A stretch of DNA of 42,615 nucleotides, from positions 1 through 42,615 of the IMG/VR virus record IMGVR_UViG_3300048848_000234; one strand, given 5' to 3'. Both the position numbers and the translations under genes were made by a program. The DNA is from a virus. Its lineage: Duplodnaviria; Caudoviricetes. The notes beneath the pieces are model-generated. The model saw nothing but the letters and a program-made list of their open reading frames with translations. It made no database searches and was not told the DNA's origin. Positions 1 to 41,994 of the stretch are shown here, one piece after another (position 1 is the first letter of the stretch; each line of letters begins with the position of its first letter).

Positions 1-732
1 CGGCTCGGCGGTGACCGGGTAGCCCAGATCGTCGGGAATACAGAGGTATGGGGTTCCGTCGCGGTCTTCGGCGAACGGGGTGATCGTCCGTAACGGATAG
101 GCCCGCGCCTGCGCGACCGCATCGTCGTAGCTCGCGAACAGCGCGAGCCGCTCCAGATTGCGGCGGGTGGGATAGATGATCGTCGCGCGGGCGGCATCCG
201 CCTCCGCCAGCAGATCGGCGGCGGTGGTCCAGATCAGGCGAACGTTCTCGGTTTCGTCGACGCTCGCCGTCGTATCCGCAGGGGCCCGCGCGAGAAAGAA
301 CAGCGTGTCGAATATGCGCATCTGCGGATGGGCAGGCAGCCAGCGCGCGAAGGGGATCAGACGGTCGAGATCGAGAATCATGTCCACCTCCGCCAGCACG
401 GCGGCGAAGGGCGTACCGGCATGCAATCGCGCACGGATCGTCGCCAGTTGCGCGGCGGTCGGTTCGGGGGACAGGCCGATCGCGACGCCGGCTTCCTCGA
501 TCGTCTCGCGGATCGCGGCGATGCGGGCGGCGCCCTCGTCATCGACGCCCATCGTTGCGGCCAGCGCGCGGTCGCCGGGATCGATGCGACCGCCGGGGAA
601 TACCATCGCACCGCCCGCGAACGCCATTGCCCTGGCGCGCTCGACCATCAGCAGTTCGGGCGGCGTTCCGTCCGCGCCCCTGGAATCGCGGATGATGACG
701 AGGGTCGCTGCGGGGATCGGGTCGTTGGCCAT
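1..732 (-). CDS. NUDIX hydrolase (host gene, runs off the left edge)
   Basis: Hand translation from ATG at 732: MANDPIPAATLVIIRD...LLMVERARAMAFAGGAMVFPGGRIDPGD...AAIRETIEEAGV, a Nudix box. No stop before position 1. Confidence 0.85.
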   Translation of the reverse strand, partial: MANDPIPAATLVIIRDSRGADGTPPELLMVERARAMAFAGGAMVFPGGRIDPGDRALAATMGVDDEGAARIAAIRETIEEAGVAIGLSPEPTAAQLATIRARLHAGTPFAAVLAEVDMILDLDRLIPFARWLPAHPQMRIFDTLFFLARAPADTTASVDETENVRLIWTTAADLLAEADAARATIIYPTRRNLERLALFASYDDAVAQARAYPLRTITPFAEDRDGTPYLCIPDDLGYPVTAEP

Positions 733-813: not shown

Positions 814-861
814 TGGTGGAGCTGAGGGGAATCGAACCCCTGACCTCTGCAGTGCGATTGC
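814..861 (-). other. att core: duplicated 3' 48 bp of tRNA-Ala(CGC), left prophage junction
   Basis: Minus strand reads GCAATCGCACTGCAGAGGTCAGGGGTTCGATTCCCCTCAGCTCCACCA: anticodon loop (CGC), T-arm GTTCGATTC, acceptor 3' strand and CCA. D-arm and 5' half are absent. Confidence 0.85.
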
Positions 862-1146
862 TCCCCAGGCTGCACTTTGCCCGGTCGCTACGAGAGAAGG
901 TGCAGAAAATCGCTCCTGTCATCCGCTGCCATAGAGGCGTTTGCGATACCAGCGCGATACCAGACCACGATCCCATGAGCATGGCGATCTGCGGATCGGG
1001 CACCGGGATCGAGTTCAGGTCCAGGTTAACCGCCGGGATACTGATCGCGGGTATCGTCGTCGTCACGAGCCAGCGATCGCGTAATTCGCCCTATACAGAC
1101 CGCAGGGATCTCTCATAAAATAACCTTGGTTACAAAGGGGGTTAAG

Positions 1147-2445
1147 GTGGAAGAATCTACACGCGGCGTTATCCATCGCCGTCATCTACTGACATTCATT
1201 GGGGGTGGGGCGCTGACGCTTGCAGGGTGCGGCGGCTCGGGTGAAAACGGCAGCAGCGTTCCGGTGGTCACCGGCCCAAACACGGGAACGCCCGCTCCGA
1301 CGCCTCCTGTCGAGGTGTTGCCGCCCGCTCGGAGCTCGAACATCCTCGTGCTCGGCATGTCGGTGTTTAAAGGCGCCGATCTCGTTCCAGAGAATTATCC
1401 GGCTCGCGAAGCGTTCTTTGTCGACAATGCGCCGGTTCAGTACTTTCGGGGGGCGTTGTTGGCCACAGCTGGCTATACGCCCGCATTGGTCGGGTACGAT
1501 ATGCAGGCAGTCGGCGGTGCCTTCGATCATGAAGTCGAGGCGCAATACACTGCTTCTCGCCAATCGCCGAAGAACCTCGTGTTTCTCGGCTTGGGTATGA
1601 ATAGTGGCTCGCCGTATGGCGTCTATGGTACAGGGCCGAACGCGGGCTACACCAAGGAAGTGCTCCGTTCGCAATTGCGCCGGATCAAAGCAGACGGCGC
1701 CCGCGCCATTGTCTGCAACACCGTACATCCATGGCCCGCCAAGATCACAGCCGCTGATATCAGCACAAGCCTGTCGCAAGGCCTGTCATGGCCTCCTGAA
1801 CGCCGCACTCTGTTCGCGTACAACGTCTTCCACTTCGACGCTGCTGCCGGCACGCTGTCGCTGCCAGGGACCTACGCGGATGGCGTCGCGATATTCGATC
1901 ATCCGTCGGGCGGATCGCGTATCAAGGCCGGTTCGCAGCTATTCATCACAGGCGAGGGGCAGCATGTCGGCCGCACGCTGATCGTGACCGAGCGGGTCGA
2001 CGGCAATACCGTCCGGGTTCGTGGCATCGTCGCGACCGAAAACGTCCCGGCTGGTGTCCGCCACATCAATCCACCGCTCGAAGAGATCATGGAAACACCA
2101 CCGTCGCGACAGCTCCAGGTGAAGGACTGGACGGGCGGCGGTGTATCTGTCGAAGGGCTGGCGAGCTTCGCCCTTTGGAACGCGATGCTGCTCGATCTCT
2201 GCCGTGAGGAAGACGTAACGTTGCTCGACTTCGAGTATCGCGGCTTCAAGTGGGTCGAGCGGCGTGGGTGGCCTTCGGTCTACACCGCCGAATACATGGG
2301 GAAGACCATCAGCAATGTGAATCACCCCGTCTATGCTGCGCAGCGGGTGATCTACGGCGAGTTGATGGCGTCACTCGCTTCGTCCTATGCCCGAGGCACG
2401 CTGGCGGCGGGCTTTCAGGTCCTCCGCGGGCCGGCGATCGCTTAG
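1147..2445 (+). CDS. Tat-signal lipoprotein with SGNH-type esterase domain, paralogue of the tail spike tip (moron)
   Basis: Likely GTG start at 1147 after AAGGGGG (ORF open from TTG 1126). HRRHLL twin-Arg motif, h-region, lipobox LAGC, G/S/P/T-rich tether, then LGMS / GMN / NVNHP motifs collinear with the C-terminus of 7649-10072. Confidence 0.85.
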   Translation: MEESTRGVIHRRHLLTFIGGGALTLAGCGGSGENGSSVPVVTGPNTGTPAPTPPVEVLPPARSSNILVLGMSVFKGADLVPENYPAREAFFVDNAPVQYFRGALLATAGYTPALVGYDMQAVGGAFDHEVEAQYTASRQSPKNLVFLGLGMNSGSPYGVYGTGPNAGYTKEVLRSQLRRIKADGARAIVCNTVHPWPAKITAADISTSLSQGLSWPPERRTLFAYNVFHFDAAAGTLSLPGTYADGVAIFDHPSGGSRIKAGSQLFITGEGQHVGRTLIVTERVDGNTVRVRGIVATENVPAGVRHINPPLEEIMETPPSRQLQVKDWTGGGVSVEGLASFALWNAMLLDLCREEDVTLLDFEYRGFKWVERRGWPSVYTAEYMGKTISNVNHPVYAAQRVIYGELMASLASSYARGTLAAGFQVLRGPAIA

Positions 2446-2726: not shown

Positions 2727-4727
2727 TCAGGCCGCGATGCTGGTGTTGCTACAGAGCGAGTTGGCGTTGTCCGGGTGCTTGCCCTGGAAGTAGGCGATCT
2801 CCGCCGCGGCCGGCTTCTCGGCCACCACGACACGTACCTGGTTCGGCGCGACGATCACGGCCGACGCGACGTTCAACTGCGTCACGAATTGCCCGATCGT
2901 CGCGTCGATGACGCCATCGGGCGAGGCCGTGAAGCCAGTGATGTTCGACTGCCCGGTCAGACCGACAAGCGAGTTCGCGCCGCGCAGATCGAATGTCACG
3001 ACGAAGGCGCCGGTCGCCGGATCGTAGGTACGAGACAGCGGCTTCGGGCATTTATAGGCCCGACCCGACGCCCGCATCACGCCTGCCATCTGCGTGCCCA
3101 GCCGGGTGCCGGAGTGCTCGACGCCGGCAGGCGTCATATGCGTGCCGTCCGTGCTATAGGATCGATCCCGGTAGGAGCAGGACGTGACGTTCGGGTCGTT
3201 CATCTCCATCTGGATGGTCGCCTGCACCTGGCCATAATCGGCAGCGACCGGCCCGTTGGCGTCGTCCGTTTGGCCGCCGATCGACAGGAACACCGGGAGG
3301 GTCGGCTGATTGCAGGCGGTCCGCACCTGACTGATCAGCGTGGTGAAGCGGGAAACGTTGGTCGCCACGTCGGAGGTAACGTCGGTTGCGAGGAACGGCA
3401 CACAGAAGCAGGCAACGATGCCCTGATGCTTCGTGATGTAATCGGTCAGCGCGACCCGGTTGCCATCGCCGGCGTTGACCCATGCTTCGAGCTTCGACCC
3501 GGTGACAGCGAAGTCGAGGAAGGCGATTGGGACATCCGGCTCCAATGCCCGCAGGCGGTTGCCGATGGCTCGGATACCACCCCCGAGATTGTTGCTGGCG
3601 TACACACCATTGCCGTTCGCATCGACCGTCAAGCGATCCATGCGATAGCTGTTCGCCGGGTTGGGCTCGTTAACTGCTCCGGCAGCGCAGAACATGCTGG
3701 CCGTCGACGATCCACCGACTGCCACGACGTCACCGACGCCGAACGTCGTCGTGGTGAGCGCGGAGGTCGCGAGCAGGGTGGTGCCGACATAGGTGCGAAG
3801 CTGCACCTGATATCCGACGAACCCGACCGGAACGCCCGGCAGGAAGCCGGTGATATAGCCGCCCGCGATGCTCACGCCAGTCATGTCTGTCCAGTCGAGA
3901 ACCGTAGCGGCCCCTCGGACGACCTTACCCTGCACCCGCGTCGGCGTGTTGGCGACCGTTCCGGTGTAGGCACCCTTGACCTTGATGTTGCCGGCCTTGG
4001 TGCCGGTCACCCGTTGCAGGATTTCGTTCTGCGTGAAGTCGTTGACGGTGACGGCCGAAGGGGTCGCTGAGTTGTCGTCGTAGGCGTAGGACGCCGCGCC
4101 AATGGCGTTGGGATATGCCGCAGGGAACATCGCTTTGATGGCGTGCGCTGTCTCTGCGTCCGGATGGCCGCTGTACGTCCGCAGCCCGCCCGTCCCCTTC
4201 GTGTTCGTCGGAATTTTATACTCAGGGGTCGCCTCGACACCCGACCACGTGATTGCGGGGATGTCGTCGGTGATTACGGCAGCGAGCGTCAGGCCACCGG
4301 CATAGGTGTCAATCGCAACGCCCGTCGAACCATCGTTGAGCCCACCGGCGCCGACCAAGCGTCGAGCGCTGTTCCCGGTGATGCCGGTACATGCCACGGC
4401 GATGATTGCGATACGGGTGAAGCTCTTGTCTACCGTAGCTGTAAGCGACGCCGTCGTGCCATCGGGCACGTAGACCGGCCGACCGAAGAATACGTGCTGG
4501 TATAGCCCGTTCCCGGTGTAGCTGACCTGACTGTTCGGCAGGAAGGCATCGATGCCATTGACGGTGCAGGACACCACGTCGCGCTTCACCGAGGATGCGG
4601 AGAAGATTACGACGGGGACAACCCAGCGCGCCGGATCGGCAGCGCCAATAGCCAGGGCAAAAGTGCGAGTAATATCCCCGGCGTTGTAGAACCCACCAGC
4701 GATGTTCGTAGGGACTGCGTTGGCCAT
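2727..4727 (-). CDS. Sialate O-acetylesterase (SASA/SGNH)-like protein with beta-rich N-terminal domains
   Basis: GVGDVVAVGGSST resembles VGEVWxxSGQSN; AVTGSKLEAW resembles GGTxIExW; DGTH is the DxxH motif. No signal peptide seen. Confidence 0.65.
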   Translation of the reverse strand: MANAVPTNIAGGFYNAGDITRTFALAIGAADPARWVVPVVIFSASSVKRDVVSCTVNGIDAFLPNSQVSYTGNGLYQHVFFGRPVYVPDGTTASLTATVDKSFTRIAIIAVACTGITGNSARRLVGAGGLNDGSTGVAIDTYAGGLTLAAVITDDIPAITWSGVEATPEYKIPTNTKGTGGLRTYSGHPDAETAHAIKAMFPAAYPNAIGAASYAYDDNSATPSAVTVNDFTQNEILQRVTGTKAGNIKVKGAYTGTVANTPTRVQGKVVRGAATVLDWTDMTGVSIAGGYITGFLPGVPVGFVGYQVQLRTYVGTTLLATSALTTTTFGVGDVVAVGGSSTASMFCAAGAVNEPNPANSYRMDRLTVDANGNGVYASNNLGGGIRAIGNRLRALEPDVPIAFLDFAVTGSKLEAWVNAGDGNRVALTDYITKHQGIVACFCVPFLATDVTSDVATNVSRFTTLISQVRTACNQPTLPVFLSIGGQTDDANGPVAADYGQVQATIQMEMNDPNVTSCSYRDRSYSTDGTHMTPAGVEHSGTRLGTQMAGVMRASGRAYKCPKPLSRTYDPATGAFVVTFDLRGANSLVGLTGQSNITGFTASPDGVIDATIGQFVTQLNVASAVIVAPNQVRVVVAEKPAAAEIAYFQGKHPDNANSLCSNTSIAA

Positions 4728-4729
4728 GA

Positions 4730-5194
4730 TTATGCGCTCGCGATTAGGCCGGCAGACGGAAACACCGACATGCCAGGAGTGGTGACGCTGGGCGTGAAAG
4801 CTGCGGTGCTGCCCGCGGCCGCGACTGCGACTGACGTTGTACTGGTCGCCTGGATGGTGGAGCCATCCGTGCCCGTGGCGGTGTTGCGGAAGGTGATCGC
4901 CTTGCCGGCATCCGCTGCCTGGGTGACGTAATCAGCGGCGACGACTCCCCCGGCAAGGAGATAGTCGCGTGCCGACACCGTTCCGTTGGCGACGACGCCA
5001 TCGGTGAAAGTCAGTACGTTGACCGCCTGACCTGCCGTGATGGCACCGGTGACGCTGGGTCGGTTGGTGAAGCTCGGCGCAGGTGTGGGCGGGGGAGTGA
5101 CAATCACCCCGCCGGTTGCAACGAAACCGGCCCGTGACTGAGCCTTGGCAGCAGCCGAGCCCGAAACACGGGGATATCGAGGATTGCGGGCCAT
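4730..5194 (-). CDS. Hypothetical T/A/V-rich protein, possibly Ig-like or virion-associated
   Basis: 154 aa ORF with GAAAGG upstream; stop 2 nt before the start of the SASA-like gene. Confidence 0.6.
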   Translation of the reverse strand: MARNPRYPRVSGSAAAKAQSRAGFVATGGVIVTPPPTPAPSFTNRPSVTGAITAGQAVNVLTFTDGVVANGTVSARDYLLAGGVVAADYVTQAADAGKAITFRNTATGTDGSTIQATSTTSVAVAAAGSTAAFTPSVTTPGMSVFPSAGLIASA

Positions 5195-5292: not shown

Positions 5293-5646
5293 TCACCGGC
5301 AGCCAGCAGGCGCGAGGCCGGTAGCAATCACCGCAGCGGTGCAGCGGCGCTCCAGCGCGACCGCGACCGCCCGGCTGTTGCCGCGCTCGACTGCGCCGAT
5401 CGCCTCGGCGAACCGCTCCACGATCTCGGCAAGGATGCCGCGGTCGATCGTCACCGCCTCGCCCGACGGCTTGGCGGCGAGCGGCGTCAGCTGCTCGGTG
5501 CGGGTGAGGTCAGGTGCCAGAGGGGGCAGCGTCGGCCGCTCGGTTCGCGCGAGCGATGCCGGCGTTGAGCGTGTCGCGCAGGCTGTCGACAGGAGCGGCA
5601 GGAGCAGGAGCGCCGGCAGCAGCAGGCGGGACGGTGTCGATCGCAT
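5293..5646 (-). CDS. o-spanin (Rz1-like lipoprotein)
   Basis: Hydrophobic signal ending LSTAC, Pro-rich body, overlaps the 3' end of the i-spanin in another frame. Confidence 0.7.
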   Translation of the reverse strand: MRSTPSRLLLPALLLLPLLSTACATRSTPASLARTERPTLPPLAPDLTRTEQLTPLAAKPSGEAVTIDRGILAEIVERFAEAIGAVERGNSRAVAVALERRCTAAVIATGLAPAGCR

Positions 5647-5908
5647 TGCGCAGATCCTTGATCGTGGCCTTCACGGCCTGGGTGGAGAGGTCGTCGGCAC
5701 GAGCGACACGCCTGCTGATCGAATCGGCGACGACAGCCGCGGTGCGCTCGTCGGCTCGAGCCTCCGCGATGCGCTCGGTCCGCTGGTGCTCGACGGCCTG
5801 CGTTACCTTCGCAGCGCCGGCCTTCTCGCCGTCGTGGCGGACCAGCCAGACGACCAGCAGGATCGCGAGCAGCACGCCTGCGCCGATGATGAGGCGAAGG
5901 CGGGTCAT
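5510..5908 (-). CDS. i-spanin (Rz-like)
   Basis: MTRLRLIIGAGVLLAILLVVWLV N-terminal TM followed by coiled coil; ATGA overlap with the endolysin stop. Confidence 0.7.
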   Translation of the reverse strand: MTRLRLIIGAGVLLAILLVVWLVRHDGEKAGAAKVTQAVEHQRTERIAEARADERTAAVVADSISRRVARADDLSTQAVKATIKDLRNAIDTVPPAAAGAPAPAAPVDSLRDTLNAGIARANRAADAAPSGT

Positions 5909-6489
5909 GTCGGCAGGCCCTGCACGCAGATCGCCCGCTCGCGCGCCCGACGATTGACCAGCCCGGCGATCACCCGCCCACCAGCCTTGTTCCAGAGCAG
6001 GAACCGATCGCAGCCCGCGCGCCACTGGCCCGCGTTCCACAGCTTGGCGATGCTCGACTTGCAGAAGCCGGTGGTGCCGATGTTGTAGGAGAGCGAGACC
6101 GCGGCGATGACCTGGCTGCTGCGCCCCTTCAACGCCGGGACGCAGCTGATGATCGGCTCCGCATGCGCGATGAGCTCCTCCTCCAGCATGTCGTTGCACT
6201 GCGCGGGCGTGAACCGCATCCCCATCTTCACGCCCTTGGTGATGCCGTCGCAGGCGGTCGGCACCCTCACGATGTCGAGATAGGCATCGAGGTACTGCTT
6301 GCCGGCGACGTGAGTGACGGTGACGGTCTGGTCGGCATTGACCGTCGCCTTAACCCGCCGGCCGCTTTCCTCCTTCGGCACGAGGACGAACAGCGCGGCC
6401 GCGGCGACTACCGATCCGACGACGCCAGCCAACGTCTTCTTGCCGGGCTTCACGGCCGTCGTCTGCGTCTTGCGATCAGGCGCTGCCAT
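5905..6489 (-). CDS. SAR-type endolysin, GH24 lysozyme
   Basis: Basic N-terminus plus G/A/V-rich SAR segment; AYLDIVRVPTACDG, SLSYNIG, WNKAGGRVIAGLVNRRARERAIC motifs. Confidence 0.9.
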   Translation of the reverse strand: MAAPDRKTQTTAVKPGKKTLAGVVGSVVAAAALFVLVPKEESGRRVKATVNADQTVTVTHVAGKQYLDAYLDIVRVPTACDGITKGVKMGMRFTPAQCNDMLEEELIAHAEPIISCVPALKGRSSQVIAAVSLSYNIGTTGFCKSSIAKLWNAGQWRAGCDRFLLWNKAGGRVIAGLVNRRARERAICVQGLPT

Positions 6490-6748
6490 TGGCCGCCTCC
6501 TCGATCTTCGCCGCGGCCTTCGGCTGCGGGATCAGGCGCGCGACGATCGTCCCGACGAACAGGAGGAACGGGATCGCCTTGCCGACGCTCTCCGGCACCA
6601 TCGCCTGCACTTCGGCCGGCAGCGCGTTCCACGCCTGCAACAGCGCGTCGGGGGTCAGCGCTGCCCAGCCCATGATGATGGCCCCGAGCGCGGACAGCCG
6701 CACGGACCAGAGGCGCCATGCCTGGCGCCAACCGTCAATCACCTTCAT
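6476..6748 (-). CDS. Holin
   Basis: 90 aa, WRQAWRLWSVRL start, two hydrophobic segments, directly upstream of and overlapping the endolysin. Confidence 0.75.
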   Translation of the reverse strand: MKVIDGWRQAWRLWSVRLSALGAIIMGWAALTPDALLQAWNALPAEVQAMVPESVGKAIPFLLFVGTIVARLIPQPKAAAKIEEAANGSA

Positions 6749-7648: not shown

Positions 7649-10072
7649 TCAGCCGATCTCCGGCCCGCGGATCACGTGATAGCCCGGCCGCATCGTCCCG
7701 CGCGCGAAGTCCGCGCCGATCGCGGCCAGCGGCTGACCGTAGATGACCTTCTGCGCCGGGTAGACGGGATGATTGACGTTCGACTGCGTCACGCCCTCGT
7801 AGGTCATCTCGTAGACCGCGCGCCAACCGTACAGCTCGACGAAGCGGAAGCCGCGATAAGCGAAGTCGAGCAGCGGCACGTCCTCTTCGCGGGCGAGGAC
7901 GTCGAGCATGTTGTTGTACAGCGAGAAGCTGGCGAGGCCTTCGACGGGAATGCCATGGCCGGTCCAGTCCTTGGTCTGGCGCTGCTTAGACGGTGGCACC
8001 GTCATGATCTCTTCCAGCGGGGGCTGGGTATGACGGATCAGCGCGGTCGTGGTCGCGAGCGTCTGGGCAATCTGGCCCGCGGCGATGCGGGCCGTCGTGG
8101 CGTTCACGACCTCGGCAACTGTCAGGATCAGGCCGGCATTGGCACCGGGAGCGCCATCGGCATGGACGTAGAGCAGCGAGCCGGGCTTGATCTTCGTGCC
8201 GCCGAACTTGCCGCTGGCGAAGATGCCCTCTGGCGCGTTGCCATCGGGCGCGCAGCTGAGCGTGTTCGCTGCCTTGTCGAACGACCAGACGCCGAAGAAG
8301 GCGAGCGTGCGCTGATCTGCCGGCCAGTTGATGCCCATGCCCAGCGCGGCCGCCTGATCGGCTGGCACGATCTTCTCAGGCCAAGGGCAGATCGTGTTGC
8401 CGAGGAATGCTATGCCGCCCTGCGCCCTGATCGTGCGCAGCGTCTGGCGCAGCGAGGCAATCGCGACATCGGCACCGATGCCATGCACGCCGTACATCGA
8501 GCCGGTGTTCATCCCGGCGATGATGGGCACGAGCAACTTCGGCGCGAAGCCCGACGCCGCCAGCTGCGCACCGAAGCTGTCATCGAACGAGGCGTTGACC
8601 GACCGATTGTCGAACGGGACCGAGTAGACGCCGTGGCCCAGCACCCCGGTGATGCCGTCGACCAGGTAGCGCATCGGTGAGTGGTCGAAGTTGAAGACCT
8701 CGCGATCCGGATAGTTCAGCGGCGTCAGATCTGCGCCACGACCGACCGAGGTGCCGAGACCGACCACCGGCAGCACGGTCGCCGTCGTCGTTCGAAGACC
8801 GCGAACGTACGTCGAAACACCATGCGGGTTCGCATCGCGCATTGCCTCGACGGCGCGGAAGGTCGCAATGCTGGTCGGCGTGACGCCGGCAGGATCGACG
8901 CGGGCGGGCAGACCGACCGATTCCAGCGACCATATCGCCCCACCGAACCCGTCCCAGGCGATCCGGGTCTTGGTAAACGGCGGGAGATCACCCGCTTCGA
9001 GCTGATCATTGCCGCCCTTCAGCAGGGGCCGCGCTCCGCCGCCATTGAGCGCAATCGTCACCGGTCCGGTGTTCGCAGCTGGTCCTGTGGTGAAGGGTAT
9101 GGAAAAGCCCCGGACAGGTTGCTGCCCGAGCGGCGCGGTCAGCACGATTGCATTCGCCGTGCCGGAGACCTCGGCATAGTCCGGGAACGCCTGGCGGAGA
9201 TCGTCGCGCAGATGACCGTAGCTGACCACCTGCCAGTTTCCGCCCGCGGCGCTGTACATCACGAGGTACGGATACCCCGCGCGGAAGTCCCGCGCCTTCA
9301 GCGCGCTGCCGCCATCGGCCTGCGCGACCGGGATCGGGCCGAGGCCGTTGACGTTGAGCGTCACACCTCCGGTGTTGTCGGCGACGGCGCGGAACAGGAT
9401 CTTCAGGCCGGGGACCAGCCCCGGCAGCACAGCCGCGCTCGCCGTGATGACGTTCGGGGTTCCCGCCACGTCGCCGAGGACATAGGTGCCGCCGGCGCGA
9501 TAGGCGTCGACCGCTGCTGCCGCGGCCGTAGCGCGATCGATCAGCGGACCGATGAAGCTGAAGCCGTCGATCGACACCTGGACGATGTCACTGGCGAACA
9601 CGAGTTCCGCGGCGCTCCACGTCGCGGCGTCGGCGCTGGCGTTGCCATAGCCCGCAGGACGATCGGTTGGGGCACCTTCCGCGCCTGTGACGCCGGGCAG
9701 GATGACCAGATTGCCATAGATCAGGCGCCGCTCGTCGCCACCAAAGGTGCCGATCAGGTCATAGGCCAGCGTCGTAGCGGAGCCGAGCTCACCCGCGTAG
9801 GGCAGCCCTTTCATCGTAGTCTTGTTGATCCGGACCAGCAAGGTCGTGACCGGAACGCCGTTCTCGATCACGACGCTCTCGATGAAGAGGCCCTCGGCGG
9901 TCTTCACCTGCTGCTGCTGAAGATCGACCAGCGCGAGTCCCGGCGTGTCCTCGATCAGGCGCACCTGCATGCGCGGATTCGCGTTGGTCGCGTCGATACC
10001 GACCAGCCGGATCGTGCGCACGCACGCCGTATATCGGTCCGCCCCGATGGACAGACGCGCAGCAATTCCCAT
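7649..10072 (-). CDS. Tail fibre/spike with two tandem repeat domains and a C-terminal SGNH-type esterase domain
   Basis: Last gene of the tail module. Repeats GTPNVIT...NTGGVTLNVNGLG and GTANAIV...NTGPVTIALNGGG; C-terminal LGTS / GMN / NVNHP. Confidence 0.8.
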   Translation of the reverse strand: MGIAARLSIGADRYTACVRTIRLVGIDATNANPRMQVRLIEDTPGLALVDLQQQQVKTAEGLFIESVVIENGVPVTTLLVRINKTTMKGLPYAGELGSATTLAYDLIGTFGGDERRLIYGNLVILPGVTGAEGAPTDRPAGYGNASADAATWSAAELVFASDIVQVSIDGFSFIGPLIDRATAAAAAVDAYRAGGTYVLGDVAGTPNVITASAAVLPGLVPGLKILFRAVADNTGGVTLNVNGLGPIPVAQADGGSALKARDFRAGYPYLVMYSAAGGNWQVVSYGHLRDDLRQAFPDYAEVSGTANAIVLTAPLGQQPVRGFSIPFTTGPAANTGPVTIALNGGGARPLLKGGNDQLEAGDLPPFTKTRIAWDGFGGAIWSLESVGLPARVDPAGVTPTSIATFRAVEAMRDANPHGVSTYVRGLRTTTATVLPVVGLGTSVGRGADLTPLNYPDREVFNFDHSPMRYLVDGITGVLGHGVYSVPFDNRSVNASFDDSFGAQLAASGFAPKLLVPIIAGMNTGSMYGVHGIGADVAIASLRQTLRTIRAQGGIAFLGNTICPWPEKIVPADQAAALGMGINWPADQRTLAFFGVWSFDKAANTLSCAPDGNAPEGIFASGKFGGTKIKPGSLLYVHADGAPGANAGLILTVAEVVNATTARIAAGQIAQTLATTTALIRHTQPPLEEIMTVPPSKQRQTKDWTGHGIPVEGLASFSLYNNMLDVLAREEDVPLLDFAYRGFRFVELYGWRAVYEMTYEGVTQSNVNHPVYPAQKVIYGQPLAAIGADFARGTMRPGYHVIRGPEIG

Positions 10073-31510: not shown

Positions 31511-31975
31511 TTAGAAGGGGACGTCGTCGTCCAGATCGTCGACGGGGGCTCCGCCACCGCCGCTGCCGCGAGATCCGCCGCGGCTGTCGCCGTAGCTGGA
31601 GTAATCGTGCCGTCCCGGATCGGCTTCGCGGCGATCGAGCAGCACCAGCGACGAATTGAACGCCCCCAGCACGATCTCGGTCGAATAGCGGTCGTTGCCC
31701 TGCTGATCCTGCCACTTGCGCGTGCGCAGCTGACCCTCGACGAAGACCTTCGAGCCCTTCTTCAGGTACTGCTCTGCGACCTTCACCAGCCCATCGTTCA
31801 TGACGACGACGGAGTGCCACTCGGTGCGCTCCTTGCGCTCGCCGGTCGACTTGTCCTTCCAGCTTTCCGACGTTGCGAGGCTCATGTTCACGATCTTCCC
31901 GCCGCTGGGGAAGCTGCGACTGTCAGGGTCTTTGCCGAGATGACCGACGAGGATCACCTTATTCACGCTGCTCAT
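31511..31975 (-). CDS. ssb: Single-stranded DNA-binding protein
   Basis: VNKVILVGHLGKDP, TEWH, acidic tip DDLDDDVPF. Confidence 0.97.
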   Translation of the reverse strand: MSSVNKVILVGHLGKDPDSRSFPSGGKIVNMSLATSESWKDKSTGERKERTEWHSVVVMNDGLVKVAEQYLKKGSKVFVEGQLRTRKWQDQQGNDRYSTEIVLGAFNSSLVLLDRREADPGRHDYSSYGDSRGGSRGSGGGGAPVDDLDDDVPF

Positions 31976-32457
31976 CAGATCATCCCCAGTGCTTGCATGT
32001 AGACTTCGAGGATCGCCTCCTCCTCCTGATACTCTTCCTTCTTCTTCTTCCGGATCGAGAGTATCTTGCGGATGGCCTTCGGGTCATATCCGCGTCCTTT
32101 CGCCTCCGACATGACGTCCTTGATGTCATCCGAGATGCCCTTCTTCTCCTCCTCCAGGCGCTCGGCGCGCTCGATCAGGAGGCGGAGTTCGTCGGCTGCG
32201 ATGTTGCCGCCTTCGGGCATGGGATCGTCGCCATCGGGTGCGTTCGGCGGCCGGAACGTGGTGGTGCCCGCTCGGGTTTTCGCCGTCTTCCAGCCTGCCT
32301 CCATGATGGCGCGGACGATCGCCTTGCGAGACGGGCTGGCCGACCGGATATGGCTCGGCAGCGCATCCAGGACCGTCTCTGCGGTCACCTCGTCCTCACG
32401 GCCGTGGAGCAGCTGCTCCACAGCGAGAGCGACTTGCGTGTCGAGCGTCGGTCTCAT
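31975..32457 (-). CDS. gapR: GapR (DUF2312) family DNA-binding protein with N-terminal extension
   Basis: C-terminal half AADELRLLIERAERLEEEKKGISDDIKDVMSEAKGRGYD...LEVYMQALGM. Confidence 0.85.
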   Translation of the reverse strand: MRPTLDTQVALAVEQLLHGREDEVTAETVLDALPSHIRSASPSRKAIVRAIMEAGWKTAKTRAGTTTFRPPNAPDGDDPMPEGGNIAADELRLLIERAERLEEEKKGISDDIKDVMSEAKGRGYDPKAIRKILSIRKKKKEEYQEEEAILEVYMQALGMI

Positions 32458-33017
32458 GCGGGCAACGCCTCGCGGACCTTCACAAGCGCAGCCTCGGCAG
32501 CGTTAGCACGCGCTTCGGCCGCCTCCGCGCGCGCGATCGCCGCGGCGAGGTCGGCGGACTGGTCGGGGCGATCGGCGAAGCGCGCGCGCAGAAGCTCGAT
32601 GAGCGTGTCGAAATCGACGACGGGCATCGGCACCTCGGCCGCAGGAGCGGGCGTGAGGCCGCGCTCGATGAGCTCGGCGGCTGCTGCGCCGAGCGAGAGC
32701 ACCTGCGATTGTGCGTGCCGCTCGACCGCCTGGATGGCGAGCTGCGCCGACGCCGGCAGCTGTATGGACTTGGGGCTCACTACGTCCTCCTTCGTTGGCG
32801 CCGGACTGGGCGTCGGCACCTTGCCGATGGGGTTGGTGGGACGACGCCGACCGTCGCGACAGAAGGCGCAGCGGCCGCCCACCAGGCGGGGGCTGTCCTC
32901 GAAGCACTGCTCGCATTCGCCGGCGACGCCCTCGGCGATCGGCACGCGGGCACGACGAAGGCTATGGGCGAGATGCTCGGCCTGAAGCTCCGCTGCCATG
33001 TCGACGACGTCGCTCAT
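32454..33017 (-). CDS. TraR/DksA-like C4 zinc-finger protein with long C-terminal extension
   Basis: MSDVVDMA (DxxDxA), CEQC...CAFC. Confidence 0.7.
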   Translation of the reverse strand: MSDVVDMAAELQAEHLAHSLRRARVPIAEGVAGECEQCFEDSPRLVGGRCAFCRDGRRRPTNPIGKVPTPSPAPTKEDVVSPKSIQLPASAQLAIQAVERHAQSQVLSLGAAAAELIERGLTPAPAAEVPMPVVDFDTLIELLRARFADRPDQSADLAAAIARAEAAEARANAAEAALVKVREALPA

Positions 33018-33019
33018 GA

Positions 33020-33217
33020 TCAGGCTGCGGCGCGTGCGATCGCGACGCGTTCGGTCAGCGCGTCGGCGTTCGGATGGTCCCGCACCAGGCGGTTGATGTT
33101 CGCCAACGCGTCCGCCCGGTCACCGCGCACGATGCTGACGACGAGGTCGTGCAGGATGTTCTCGTCGAGGTCCGGCGAGGCGTCGCCGCATTCGTCGCAG
33201 ATGTGGGTGCTACTCAT
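33020..33217 (-). CDS. Hypothetical protein (65 aa, CxxC)
   Basis: Fits the gap between dnaN and the TraR-like gene. Confidence 0.6.
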   Translation of the reverse strand: MSSTHICDECGDASPDLDENILHDLVVSIVRGDRADALANINRLVRDHPNADALTERVAIARAAA

Positions 33218-33228
33218 CTCTCGATCCT

Positions 33229-34350
33229 TCAGACGCGCATCGGCATGCAGACGCCGATCAGATCGGGATCCTTGTCGGAGCTGAAGCGCAGGGGTGATGC
33301 ATTCCCGTCGAGCGAGATCGTCAGAGCCGATCCCTCGGCGAAGATGCTGGCGACGTCGCGGCCGTACTGGCTGTTCAGGCCGAATCTGATCGGCTCGCCC
33401 GTCAGCGAAGCCTCGACGGGTTCGGTCGCGCTCGTGCCTGTCTGGTCCTTGGCGCTGACCTCGTGCGCGTCCTCGTCGCTGCCGAAGTCGAACGCGACGG
33501 CGCGGACCTTGATCTTGTCGCCCTCGGCGTTGACGATCGCTGCGACGGACGCGACGGGAGCGATGAACTGCTCCCGCGTGACGCTGATCACGTGCCGGCC
33601 CTGAGCAGGGATGACGCGCGTGTAGTCGGGGAAGGTGCCCTCGACGAGCTTGCTGATGATCGTCGACGTGCCGATCCGGAACTGGATCGCCTTGGCGTTC
33701 ACCTCGATCGCGACCTCACCGCTGATCTTGCCGATCAGCGCCAGCACCTGACCCACGGCCTTGCTCGGCACGATGATGTCATCCATCCCCGCAGCGCCAG
33801 CTGGCAGGACGGCCTCCGCCCGCACCAGCCGGTGGCCATCGGTGGCCGCCGCCCGCAGCTTCTGGTCGACCGTGTGCATGAAGACGCCGCAAAGGTAGTA
33901 GCGGGTCTCCTCACTCGACTGGGCGATACGGCAGGCGCCGAACAGGCGCGCCAGCGCATCGCTGGTGAGCGTGAATCGCACGGCGTTCACCAGCGCCGGC
34001 AACTTCGGGAAGTCGTCCGCAGCGAGCGTCGAGATCGTCCGGACGCCGCGACCCTGCTTCACTGTGACGGCGGACCGTCCGGCGACGGCTGCGATCATCA
34101 GCTTGCCGGGCTTGAAGCTCTTCGCAGCCGCGAGGATCTTATCGCTCGGCAGCGTCGTCTTCATCTCGCCGACGGCAGCTGCGGTGGCGTTCGCCTCGAT
34201 ATCAAGATCCGTGCCGGTCAGCGTGACGGTGCCGTCCTGGACAACGAACAGCACGTTGCTGAGCACCGGGATGGTGTTGCGCGCCTCGATCACGCCGTTG
34301 ACCTGCTGAAGCGCGCCGAGCAGCGCGTCACGTTCGATTTCTACCGTCAT
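33229..34350 (-). CDS. dnaN: DNA polymerase III beta sliding clamp (phage copy)
   Basis: 373 aa; RNTIPVLSNV, GTDLD, SSEETRYYLCGV, ATDGHRL, SKLVEGTFPDYTRVIP, CMPMRV. Confidence 0.95.
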   Translation of the reverse strand: MTVEIERDALLGALQQVNGVIEARNTIPVLSNVLFVVQDGTVTLTGTDLDIEANATAAAVGEMKTTLPSDKILAAAKSFKPGKLMIAAVAGRSAVTVKQGRGVRTISTLAADDFPKLPALVNAVRFTLTSDALARLFGACRIAQSSEETRYYLCGVFMHTVDQKLRAAATDGHRLVRAEAVLPAGAAGMDDIIVPSKAVGQVLALIGKISGEVAIEVNAKAIQFRIGTSTIISKLVEGTFPDYTRVIPAQGRHVISVTREQFIAPVASVAAIVNAEGDKIKVRAVAFDFGSDEDAHEVSAKDQTGTSATEPVEASLTGEPIRFGLNSQYGRDVASIFAEGSALTISLDGNASPLRFSSDKDPDLIGVCMPMRV

Positions 34351-40418: not shown

Positions 40419-40804
40419 TGGGCGCGGAGCCGATCTTCGCCGAGATGCTGGGGCGCATTCGCCGCGCGGCGCGAAACGGCACACGCCTCCATCTTGACCC
40501 CGAACACGTCGCGGCCTTGCTGCACGACGACATCTATGCAGTTCTAAGCGCCCGCGAGGCTCAGGAGATCAGATCGCAATGCCGTCCGGAACGTCAGGAC
40601 CCGCCGGAGGAGGCAAGCGACGCAGCGCCGGCAAGTCCGCCAGTGCTCCCGCCCGCTTTGAACTTGGCCCCTTCTGGCTCTGGCACCGGCGCGATCGGGA
40701 CGATTGGAACATCTGCTGGCTCGATGGACGTGTCACGCGCCGCACATCGACGGGTATCGGAGGTGGCGGCGGGGCTCCGCCAGAAGAGGCGAGGGAGCGC
40801 CTAG
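40418..40804 (+). CDS. Hypothetical protein at the excisionase position, overlapping int
   Basis: TAATG coupling; MGAEPIFAEMLGRIRRAARNGTRLHLDPEH. Confidence 0.5.
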   Translation: MGAEPIFAEMLGRIRRAARNGTRLHLDPEHVAALLHDDIYAVLSAREAQEIRSQCRPERQDPPEEASDAAPASPPVLPPALNLAPSGSGTGAIGTIGTSAGSMDVSRAAHRRVSEVAAGLRQKRRGSA

Positions 40805-41994
40805 CCGACCATTGGACGGCGTGGCGCGCTGCCGCGAAGACGATCCAGCCGGTCGGGCCGATGGCGCCCGGCGACGTCCTCCTTGCCGAGCTCACCGCCA
40901 TGTGGCTGGAGCAGCACGTCGCCGGACTGGAGGACCCAAACCGCTACATCGATTCGGTCGAGGTGCTGGAGACGTTCTGGGAGCACATGCGCAGCCGCCG
41001 GCTGCTGCCCGAACCGCTCACCGTCCTGTCCATCACCAACGGCCTGGTCGACGCCTTCATCGCGTGGCGATCGGAGCAGGGCGCCTCGGCGCCGACGATC
41101 TCGCGGGACATCGCGGCGCTGCGCGGACCGATCAGCTGGGGCATGCGCAACAACCATCTTTCGGCCGCGCCACGGATCAAGGACGTGAAGGGCCGGAAGA
41201 AGCGCAAGGATCTGGAATGGAGCCCGGAGCAGGTCGCCGCCATCCTCGACGCGGCGATCGCCGAGCCGACCCGCGCGCACGTCCATCTGTTCTCGATGAT
41301 CAACCTGTCGACGCACGGTCGGACAGAGGCCATTCTGGAGCTCGATGCCGACACGCAGATCCGGCAGGGACTGATCTACTTTCTCCGCCCGGGTGAGGAG
41401 CAGACCCGCAAGCGCCGCGCGATCGTGCCGATCTGTCCGACCCTCGCGCCTTGGCTGGAAGGGATCAGGGGGAAGGTCATCGTCTACCGCGCTCCGACGT
41501 CGGAGAAGACGCGAGCGGCAGGCGGACCGGATTTCTTCGAACGACCGACGGCGAACATCGGCAACGGCTTCGAAGGCGTGCTGCTCGCCGCGCACGAGCT
41601 GCGTCCGGATCTCGGCCTGGCGCGCCAAGCCGTCGACGCGGACGGCAAGCCGGTGTGGCTGGAGCCGCGCCGGAAGCTGGGCGAGACGAAGCCGCGACCA
41701 AAGATGGTGGGGATCGGATCGCCGAACACGCTGCGCCATACGATTCACACGTGGCACAAGCGGCAGGGCGTGCCGGAGGCCCAGATCGATGCGGCTGCGG
41801 GACACAGCGAGCAGGGCACCGGCGCAAGCTATACCCACCTGCGTCCCGAGTACCTGAAGGAGTTCATCGCGTCGACCGAGGCCTTCTGGGCGGCGGTCGG
41901 GGAGTTCACCGAAAGTCACCTACGATACGGACGTGGTTCAAACGTTGTTGCTCTCGTGAATGGTCGCCCTAGGCGTCAATCCTCGGGCGGATGA
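40579..41994 (+). CDS. int: Tyrosine recombinase / integrase
   Basis: APTISRDIAALR, THGRTEAILEL (Arg), TRKRR, PNTLRHT, AGHS, YTHLRPEYL (Tyr). Confidence 0.9.
   Translation: MPSGTSGPAGGGKRRSAGKSASAPARFELGPFWLWHRRDRDDWNICWLDGRVTRRTSTGIGGGGGAPPEEARERLADHWTAWRAAAKTIQPVGPMAPGDVLLAELTAMWLEQHVAGLEDPNRYIDSVEVLETFWEHMRSRRLLPEPLTVLSITNGLVDAFIAWRSEQGASAPTISRDIAALRGPISWGMRNNHLSAAPRIKDVKGRKKRKDLEWSPEQVAAILDAAIAEPTRAHVHLFSMINLSTHGRTEAILELDADTQIRQGLIYFLRPGEEQTRKRRAIVPICPTLAPWLEGIRGKVIVYRAPTSEKTRAAGGPDFFERPTANIGNGFEGVLLAAHELRPDLGLARQAVDADGKPVWLEPRRKLGETKPRPKMVGIGSPNTLRHTIHTWHKRQGVPEAQIDAAAGHSEQGTGASYTHLRPEYLKEFIASTEAFWAAVGEFTESHLRYGRGSNVVALVNGRPRRQSSGG

Follow-up and report, generated by a model that had tools for sequence, protein, structure and literature searches.

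Beside its attachment site, a Sphingomonas-type prophage encodes a predicted lipoprotein whose main domain resembles the C-terminal domain of the tail spike of the same phage. This raises the question of where the lipoprotein came from, and what it does for a cell that carries the prophage. An earlier note on this DNA had proposed that the gene is a membrane-anchored copy of the phage's own spike esterase domain and that it acts in superinfection exclusion. We analyzed the window, that is, the entire virus record of 42,615 bases (66% GC), together with related phage loci and Sphingomonas genomes, and asked which parts of that proposal the data support.

The prophage and its att-proximal gene

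After ~0.8 kb of host DNA and the att site comes the prophage, most of whose genes (for lysis, tail, head and replication) are read on the minus strand (Table 1). The att sequence was first suspected to be part of a tmRNA, which was ruled out as its loop and loose contig ends showed a tRNA-Ala, the 5' half being supplied by loose ends at position 861. The same 36–48 nt were present in 3 of 120 related loci, and there is a single copy within the window. The host is probably a Sphingomonas that is not yet sampled, because the six loci with lipoprotein relatives that bear an organism name all come from Sphingomonas and the host flank had matches of up to 78% nucleotide identity among 361 Sphingomonas genomes. 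Overlapping contigs of the probable source run join the att site, the lipoprotein gene, the lysis genes and the spike gene, with the stretch 1819–2611 covered by depth and without a listed piece, and contigs of a second study span the junction of att and lipoprotein gene and the end of that gene. Because these pieces agree, it is unlikely that the layout is an assembly artefact. Prophage genes for a GapR-like DNA-binding protein and for a DNA polymerase III beta clamp lie elsewhere in the window (31975–34350, minus strand).

Table 1. Features of the window discussed in the text.
Feature	Position	Strand	Remarks
Host flank: NUDIX-like hydrolase gene	1..732	-	ORF; outside prophage; weak CoA pyrophosphatase match
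att, 3' half of tRNA-Ala	814..861	-	Anticodon CGC read from loop; tRNA-like 3' end
Candidate sigma70-like promoter	1092..1121	+	TATACA-18-TAAAAT, 9/12; AT-rich stretch
Twin-arginine signal and lipobox (predicted)	1147..1230	+	LAG-C28, Gly at +2
Predicted Tat lipoprotein, 432 aa	1147..2445	+	Tether, SGNH core, beta insertion at ~223–307; from sequence and model
Hairpin after lipoprotein stop codon	2463..2493	+	14 bp; z -3.2
Protein of 666 aa with another carbohydrate-esterase domain (SASA), unrelated to the first	2727..4727	-	PF03629, E 4e-7; after lysis genes
Lysis module: spanins, lysozyme, holin	5293..6748	-	Gene annotation
Tail spike/fibre, 807 aa	7649..10072	-	N-terminal attachment domain, two tail-type repeats, C-terminal SGNH domain (7649–8780)
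Tyrosine integrase	40579..41994	+	At far end; second att copy beyond window

The lipoprotein gene is oriented opposite to the late operon and begins 286 bases from the tRNA-Ala 3' half, with a GTG start codon and a GGGGG ribosome site 5–9 nt upstream. The AT-rich upstream region described in the earlier note is present, as positions 1081–1146 have 44% GC and only 0.13% of 66-nt windows are equally low; a promoter scan found two sigma70-like sites against 0.4 expected. The hairpin described downstream of the gene is also real, but it has no U tract and a terminator scan found none. The GC content at third codon positions was 0.71, compared with 0.79–0.90 in nine other genes or gene parts, and dN/dS relative to two relatives was 0.17–0.21. 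No close homologue of the lipoprotein was found in 119 related loci, and scans of its locus against PADLOC, NCBIfam and Rfam gave nothing that passed curated thresholds. The gene is inside a prophage, absent from related phages and foreign in composition, as is expected of a phage moron, and its sequence indicates that the moron is real and intact. The slot it occupies is variable, with unrelated genes there in three other prophage loci (of 120) that share the att site. Two of these loci have low-GC genes in that slot at the same tRNA-Ala att (L158:10094–11089 and L157:9566–9919), one of which encodes a DUF4238 protein.

The N-terminus has the arginine pair, hydrophobic stretch and lipobox Cys that would place the protein in the Tat lipoprotein class, followed by the P/T/S/G tether previously reported. 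Export, lipidation and membrane sidedness are predicted from a motif search; by the E. coli sorting rule, Gly at +2 suggests the outer membrane. The signal and tether form a module (RR-LAGCGG-PTPTP) with weak matches in 127 of 132 matching genomes; these were set aside, nearly all being confined to the signal and tether. Weak matches of this kind, mostly to the module by itself, occur in many Sphingomonas genomes, where it would offer captured domains an easily available anchor.

Fold and active site of the spike and lipoprotein domains

The spike gene comes after the tail hub genes, and the spike shares its N-terminal attachment domain with Sphingomonas prophages (38 of 401 Sphingomonas genomes). 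A BLASTP alignment of lipoprotein residues 66–431 with spike residues 436–806 had 173 identities over 374 positions (46%, E 5e-102), and a recount of the last 129 residues returned exactly the 79 ungapped identities that had been counted by hand. At the nucleotide level, the two genes could be aligned over 386 nt only, with 68% identity. Structure predictions for both domains, as had been suggested, gave an SGNH fold with the same order of elements. The lipoprotein model (pLDDT 83) has an unstructured tether (pLDDT <50 for residues 1–41), and a beta domain is inserted into its SGNH core; the model of the spike C-terminal domain had pLDDT values mostly of 75–98 in blocks of ten. All of the top VIA matches of the lipoprotein model (Z 15–17) were SGNH proteins. 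The best solved matches were SGNH esterases, and they included the coliphage protein G7C gp63.1 (Z 16.2, rmsd 3.1, 202 residues aligned), tied with others at ranks 1–8, and PatB was also matched. A top Foldseek match was protein F8R4T7 of phage K30 (E 7e-9).

The modelled domain has the alpha/beta/alpha fold of the SGNH hydrolase superfamily, and its sequence contains the Ser, Gly, Asn and His of blocks I, II, III and V, which by alignment are Ser72, G123/G124, N152 and H393, respectively. Ser72, Asn152 and His393, the residue types that the earlier note had recognized in both proteins, were invariant in 25 of 25 aligned rows of lipoproteins and spikes. The acid of block V (DxxH) is absent: both window proteins have Asn at that position (Asn390 in the lipoprotein), the lipoprotein family has Asn or Thr, and the acid is missing across the spike clade. 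Asp327 is also invariant in the 25 rows and is a possible substitute acid. Based on sequence and model, the lipoprotein is predicted to be a carbohydrate-ester esterase. The missing DxxH acid would also be in keeping with a non-catalytic mask or decoy, an anchored domain that binds and hides the receptor polymer, especially as the inserted beta domain could bind sugar. We consider such a mask highly improbable: the putative catalytic residues, including Asp327, are invariant, and stoichiometric masking of a capsule, for which the protein would need to be exposed at the surface, seems implausible.

The domain passed from tail proteins to lipoproteins

The family search scored 7,996 candidates and returned 33 clusters, one tail-type and 32 of lipoprotein length, the latter being 47–77% identical to the query (the query itself aside). 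A lipobox with Gly at +2 was present in 26 of these 32, 25 of which also had the arginine pair; the records of the other six, which include the basal P0014, start at or after the catalytic motif and have no N-terminus. The search with the spike domain found three near-spike clusters among 7,997 candidates, and a profile run over 1.84 billion representatives had 71 hits, comprising the same few above 500 bits and more distant, mostly long proteins. Of 30 distant relatives that were scanned, 22 matched tail PHROGs and 8 matched none; 18 of the 30 matched PHROG 18703, a tail fibre SGNH family that represents the wider clade of the window domain. The two window proteins, which have a longer beta insertion, do not match that PHROG themselves. 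Direct searches with the lipoprotein of IMG/VR, GenBank phages and plasmids found nothing, and the ESM Atlas gave only leads under 0.9. A search of 401 Sphingomonas genomes with the spike domain had one match, which was the search centre itself.

A tree was built from 50 domains, near-duplicates being omitted: 31 lipoprotein-type rows, three near spikes and, as outgroup, 16 distant proteins (11 of which match tail PHROGs) that were classed from their protein sequences. The lipoprotein-type rows formed one clade (100/99), to which first the three near spikes and then the outgroup proteins were successive sisters. The sister of the lipoprotein clade was P0028 (100/96) and not the spike of the window phage. 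In tests with 34 rows, a clade of the window's spike and lipoprotein was rejected (p-AU 2e-6), as was the window spike as sister of the lipoprotein family (p 8e-4). The window lipoprotein is 64–77% identical to 13 free relatives compared with 46–47% to its own spike, and it is no closer to that spike than its relatives are. Based on the AU test, the absence of excess identity and the short nucleotide match, the claim that the lipoprotein is a duplicate of its cognate spike had to be abandoned. Gene conversion between the two genes was also considered, as the lipoprotein has 12 private residues in common with the window spike, compared with two and eight for the other two spikes and with 2–8 shared by six relatives and the window spike; there was no nucleotide tract, and this candidate was rejected as weak.

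Because the lipoproteins nest among tail proteins, the clade of spike and lipoprotein is rejected and there is no excess identity, it appears that the domain passed from a tail protein to a Sphingomonas lipoprotein once, long ago, and without copying in this phage. The match between spike and lipoprotein is best explained by common descent, with a substrate that the two presumably share, rather than by duplication in this phage. Chromosomal homologues with no cognate spike, which the earlier note would have taken as a sign that the spike had captured a host domain, were indeed found (see below), but capture in that direction is contradicted by the position of the lipoproteins among phage tail esterases. 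In six unsaturated pairs of lipoproteins, dN/dS was 0.11–0.21 (0.11–0.15 for hosts' copies), which suggests that the family is under purifying selection.

Chromosomal relatives are tied to one polysaccharide cluster

Fourteen loci of relatives were fetched, and none of the 14 was in a recognizable prophage with a near spike. No homologues of the window's other phage genes were found at these loci; at one (L009), a distant spike-like gene is 7.5 kb from the family member. Whole genomes had one lipoprotein match each in five cases, and full-length matches were present in 5 of 401 Sphingomonas genomes, again one each. Three of the loci (L002, L007 and L008) fall within, or on the border of, the same orthologous Wzy-type cluster, which encodes Wzc, Wza, a ligase-like protein, two GT4 proteins, a 418-aa protein that we used as a marker, a hexapeptide acetyltransferase and a beta-helix protein, and at L010 the family member adjoins the cluster's beta-helix gene. 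The marker, which was picked from L002 after the link to the cluster had been seen and then sought in the same 401 genomes, was present in 11 of them, including all five lipoprotein carriers (Fisher p 2e-7 when the query genome is left out; 4e-4 when, in addition, three close relatives are merged). Physical linkage adds to this association: in two genomes, the distance between gene and marker is ~46–48 kb, with a second polysaccharide cluster in between. In genome G160, the gene is ~0.8 kb from half of an AT3 acyltransferase gene, the other half of which seems to begin the cluster's contig; we infer that the two contigs adjoin, and a search for an exact overlap between them found none. A sixth carrier genome (G002) is without the marker, and at L003, L009, L011 and L014 there was no cluster in the DNA examined. 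The cluster is present as well in G271, the only genome in which a distant spike of the clade was seen; this is a single case.

The lipoprotein gene is at differing positions in or near the cluster, and six of the 11 marker-positive genomes have no full-length lipoprotein. An empty site was found at L171 relative to L007, with 82% nucleotide identity on both sides, and the gene is absent from the clusters at L166 and L167 that are orthologous to that at L002. Because of these absences and empty sites, the gene is accessory, and it is tied to one polysaccharide type; a role as a core gene of polysaccharide biosynthesis was rejected on the same grounds. At L004:8965–14270 (and in part at L005, L006, L012 and L013), the family member comes after a GDSL gene and before genes for a small lipoprotein-like protein, a HigBA pair and an integrase, an arrangement inside the polysaccharide region that is possibly a mini-island. 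At L011:9800–11258, it stands alone between secE-nusG and tRNA-Trp.

The location of most relatives with known context, chromosomal and in or near the cluster, would also suit an accessory host enzyme that trims capsule or slime, affecting viscosity, adhesion or the release of stalled polymer, and that the phage carries as cargo because it lives in polymer-making strains, i.e., lysogenic conversion without exclusion. The purifying selection on hosts' copies is in keeping with such a role, and WceF of Pantoea stewartii provides a precedent, as it is described as a Tat-exported enzyme that resembles a tail spike and is encoded within a host exopolysaccharide operon (PMC7949094). WceF differs in being a beta-helix glycosidase and a conserved core gene product, for which the available text describes no lipid anchor or anti-phage role, whereas the window protein is an accessory SGNH lipoprotein that is also carried by a prophage. 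We think trimming unlikely to be the main role, since the domain descends from receptor-binding proteins, the gene is dispensable and at differing positions, and anchored forms recur in phage moron positions.

The AT3 acyltransferase, which goes with the cluster in several genomes, is relevant to an account in which acyl groups are added rather than removed. PatB and AlgX are periplasmic SGNH partners in acyl transfer, and the lipoprotein could similarly be the periplasmic SGNH partner of the cluster's AT3 protein and mask the receptor. In agreement with this, the AT3 proteins (336–383 aa) have the AT3 domain only, one lipoprotein gene is close to part of an AT3 gene (G160), block V is non-canonical, and known converting phages mostly add acetyl groups, as far as the available descriptions of Sf6 oac and JBD44 go. 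However, no AT3 or hexapeptide gene resembling the cluster's is present in the prophage, the same change in block V is shared by every spike of the clade, for which the virion provides no acyl donor, and a spike esterase is expected to favour an acylated receptor. We therefore rate acyl addition as very unlikely.

Recurrence of the spike and lipoprotein pair

A second pair was sought in Sphingomonas-type phages and was found in none of 119 related loci, many of which are short or partial. Of these, 79 were viral loci retrieved by a search with the tail hub protein, from which the best 80 of 106 matches were used. Another 39, out of 47 genome places, came from a search with the spike N-terminus, and one was a contig of G271. 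Three near-spike and 32 lipoprotein clusters are known from our searches, and one 42 kb prophage has both. A phage fragment with a sister spike, whose domain is 63% identical, lacks the lipoprotein gene throughout its 19.9-kb record, which is 44% complete. Together with the absence of near spikes at the 14 loci of relatives and the lack of excess closeness between the two window proteins, this speaks against the idea that the specificity of the lipoprotein is matched to the spike through co-variation.

Since only a single phage lineage showed the pair, we considered that the gene may be a passenger that entered the att-proximal slot by chance and is of no benefit to the phage. The unrelated genes that fill the slot in three prophages with the same att would fit this, as would the location of relatives near IS elements and an integrase island. 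On the other hand, the frame, signal and catalytic residues are intact and dN/dS is ~0.2, the gene is also present in contigs of the second study, and, given how rare both families are, a meeting by chance is improbable if host range does not unite them. Overall, a passenger seems to us decidedly unlikely.

The paralogous pairs that did occur within single loci among the 119 consisted of integrases, of host genes, or of tail-type duplicates that lack a signal. The last were found in two Sphingomonas prophages with a second copy of the spike catalytic domain and no evident signal peptide (L146:1468–5690 and L144:9204–16102), and the second copy in L146 begins with PVTEP repeats. Six loci (L071, L073, L089, L100, L137 and L156) have at one end two paralogous genes on opposite strands, 40–46% identical, which were assigned to an integrase-like family by reading the sequence.

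For the wider clade, we looked at 50 viral loci, only 28 of which have 3 kb or more downstream. At L207:9920–12283, a tail-type SGNH gene is followed by a convergent gene for a 303-aa paralogue (38% identity over 248 aa) with an N-terminal hydrophobic anchor and tether, and a GC-rich inverted repeat separates the two. At L228:8472–13810, an SGNH lipoprotein of the tail clade is encoded between integrase and lysis genes. The spike of that phage is a beta-helix protein unrelated to its lipoprotein, and anchored copies are thus not bound to resemble the spike of their own phage. A single origin of these anchored proteins with the Sphingomonas family was rejected (p-AU 8e-5), and a search for their relatives found none beyond themselves and one tail protein. 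They appear to be separately derived anchored versions in phage moron positions.

These cases raise the wider idea that spike esterases have more than once become anchored immunity enzymes that circulate between prophage slots and host capsule loci. Having gained a signal and tether, such a domain would erase the acyl groups on which its parent spike depends; in prophage slots it would provide superinfection exclusion and protection of progeny, and in capsule loci anti-phage defence. We put this forward tentatively, as a generalization somewhat more apt to fail than to hold.

A proposed role in receptor de-acylation

For the window itself, we propose that the moron is an anchored SGNH esterase derived from a tail-spike domain, which de-acylates the host polysaccharide and thereby erases the phage receptor, a reading that we judge to have an even chance of being correct. 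The lysogen would express the gene, and the folded enzyme would be exported by the Tat system and anchored through Cys28 in the periplasm or outer membrane, presumably where polymer passes en route to Wza. There it would strip O-acyl groups from the surface polysaccharide as this crosses the envelope. Spikes that need the acyl group would then fail to grip, and superinfection by this phage and its relatives would be blocked. For this to work, the polysaccharide made by the cluster should be O-acylated and be the receptor of the spike, and the prophage host should make it. The chromosomal copies may serve their hosts as an accessory anti-phage or serotype-switch gene. Each functional step of this mechanism is conjectural; the link of the family to a cluster with acyltransferase genes fits receptor de-acylation.

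That de-acylation would block adsorption is suggested because there are precedents in two other phages. In G7C, the deacetylase is reported to be essential and the O-acetyl group to be needed, with acetylation-deficient mutants being resistant (PMC10743462). In JBD44, modification of the receptor is described as saving progeny from re-adsorbing, and deletion of the modifying genes as costing ~1e4-fold in free phage (10.1101/2024.03.05.583538). Epsilon15 represents a different case, as the available text indicates that its spike esterase is apparently dispensable and that acetyl groups are not needed for infection (10.64898/2026.07.31.742079).

In favour of the proposed de-acylase, we count the co-occurrence of two very rare families in one prophage, the SGNH fold, the nesting among tail proteins, the link to the cluster and the anchored proteins of L207 and L228. 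Against it are that no second pair was found in Sphingomonas, that the phage fragment with the sister spike has no such gene and that G002 has no marker; the absence of the canonical catalytic acid and the use of SGNH folds by acyltransferases such as PatB count against de-acylation in particular. The SASA protein (Table 1) also has to be considered. It has a 154-aa partner at 4730–5194 (minus strand), and no homologue of either protein was found in 120 related loci. The SASA protein is possibly a second receptor-binding protein, and the phage may carry two of esterase type. It could even be the phage's real receptor-binding enzyme, which counts against the proposal.

Relation to known systems and significance

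G7C gp63.1 (PDB 4QNL) shares with the lipoprotein the SGNH fold and, likely, the chemistry of polysaccharide de-O-acetylation; it differs in being a virion protein, whereas the window domain is found also as a host-envelope lipoprotein, and the two are 11% identical in sequence. SGNH domains are reported as common in receptor-binding proteins of prophages, namely temperate Klebsiella phages (PMC13123978), and the word "lipoprotein" is absent from the main text of that paper. JBD44 gp40-41, the D3 O-acetylase, Sf6 Oac and BTP1 OafB are, like the moron, encoded by prophage genes near tail and lysis genes and change receptor acylation, and such converters are described as protecting lysogen and progeny (PMC13434031, PMC9558356, 10.1101/2024.03.05.583538). 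These enzymes add acetyl groups, and the available parts of the sources describe no relation to a spike, whereas the window lipoprotein is predicted to remove groups and appears to derive from a spike. T5 Llp, as far as the available text goes, resembles the window protein in being a phage lipoprotein that acts in the envelope against adsorption. The same is true of Cor, a lipoprotein of lambdoid phages. Llp and Cor are small, non-enzymatic blockers of a protein receptor, and no homology with the window lipoprotein was seen or expected.

In line with the earlier note, which knew of none, no exclusion lipoprotein derived from a spike was found described in the open-access literature (titles and abstract openings). 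We regard the moron as a variant of receptor-modifying exclusion, and its novelty lies in the predicted de-acylase being derived from a spike. Prophage serotype conversion is known mostly as the addition of groups by enzymes unrelated to the virion; a de-acylase derived from a spike, if true, would be its mirror image and would lead straight from attack to defence, with weapon and shield from one ancestor sharing this prophage genome. To our knowledge, the receptors of Sphingomonas phages are little known, and the cluster tracked by the lipoprotein allows a receptor to be read from genomes, as it predicts the polymer that is bound by the spike clade, which is so far unassigned. A further prediction is that some lone GDSL lipoproteins in capsule loci would be domesticated anti-phage genes.
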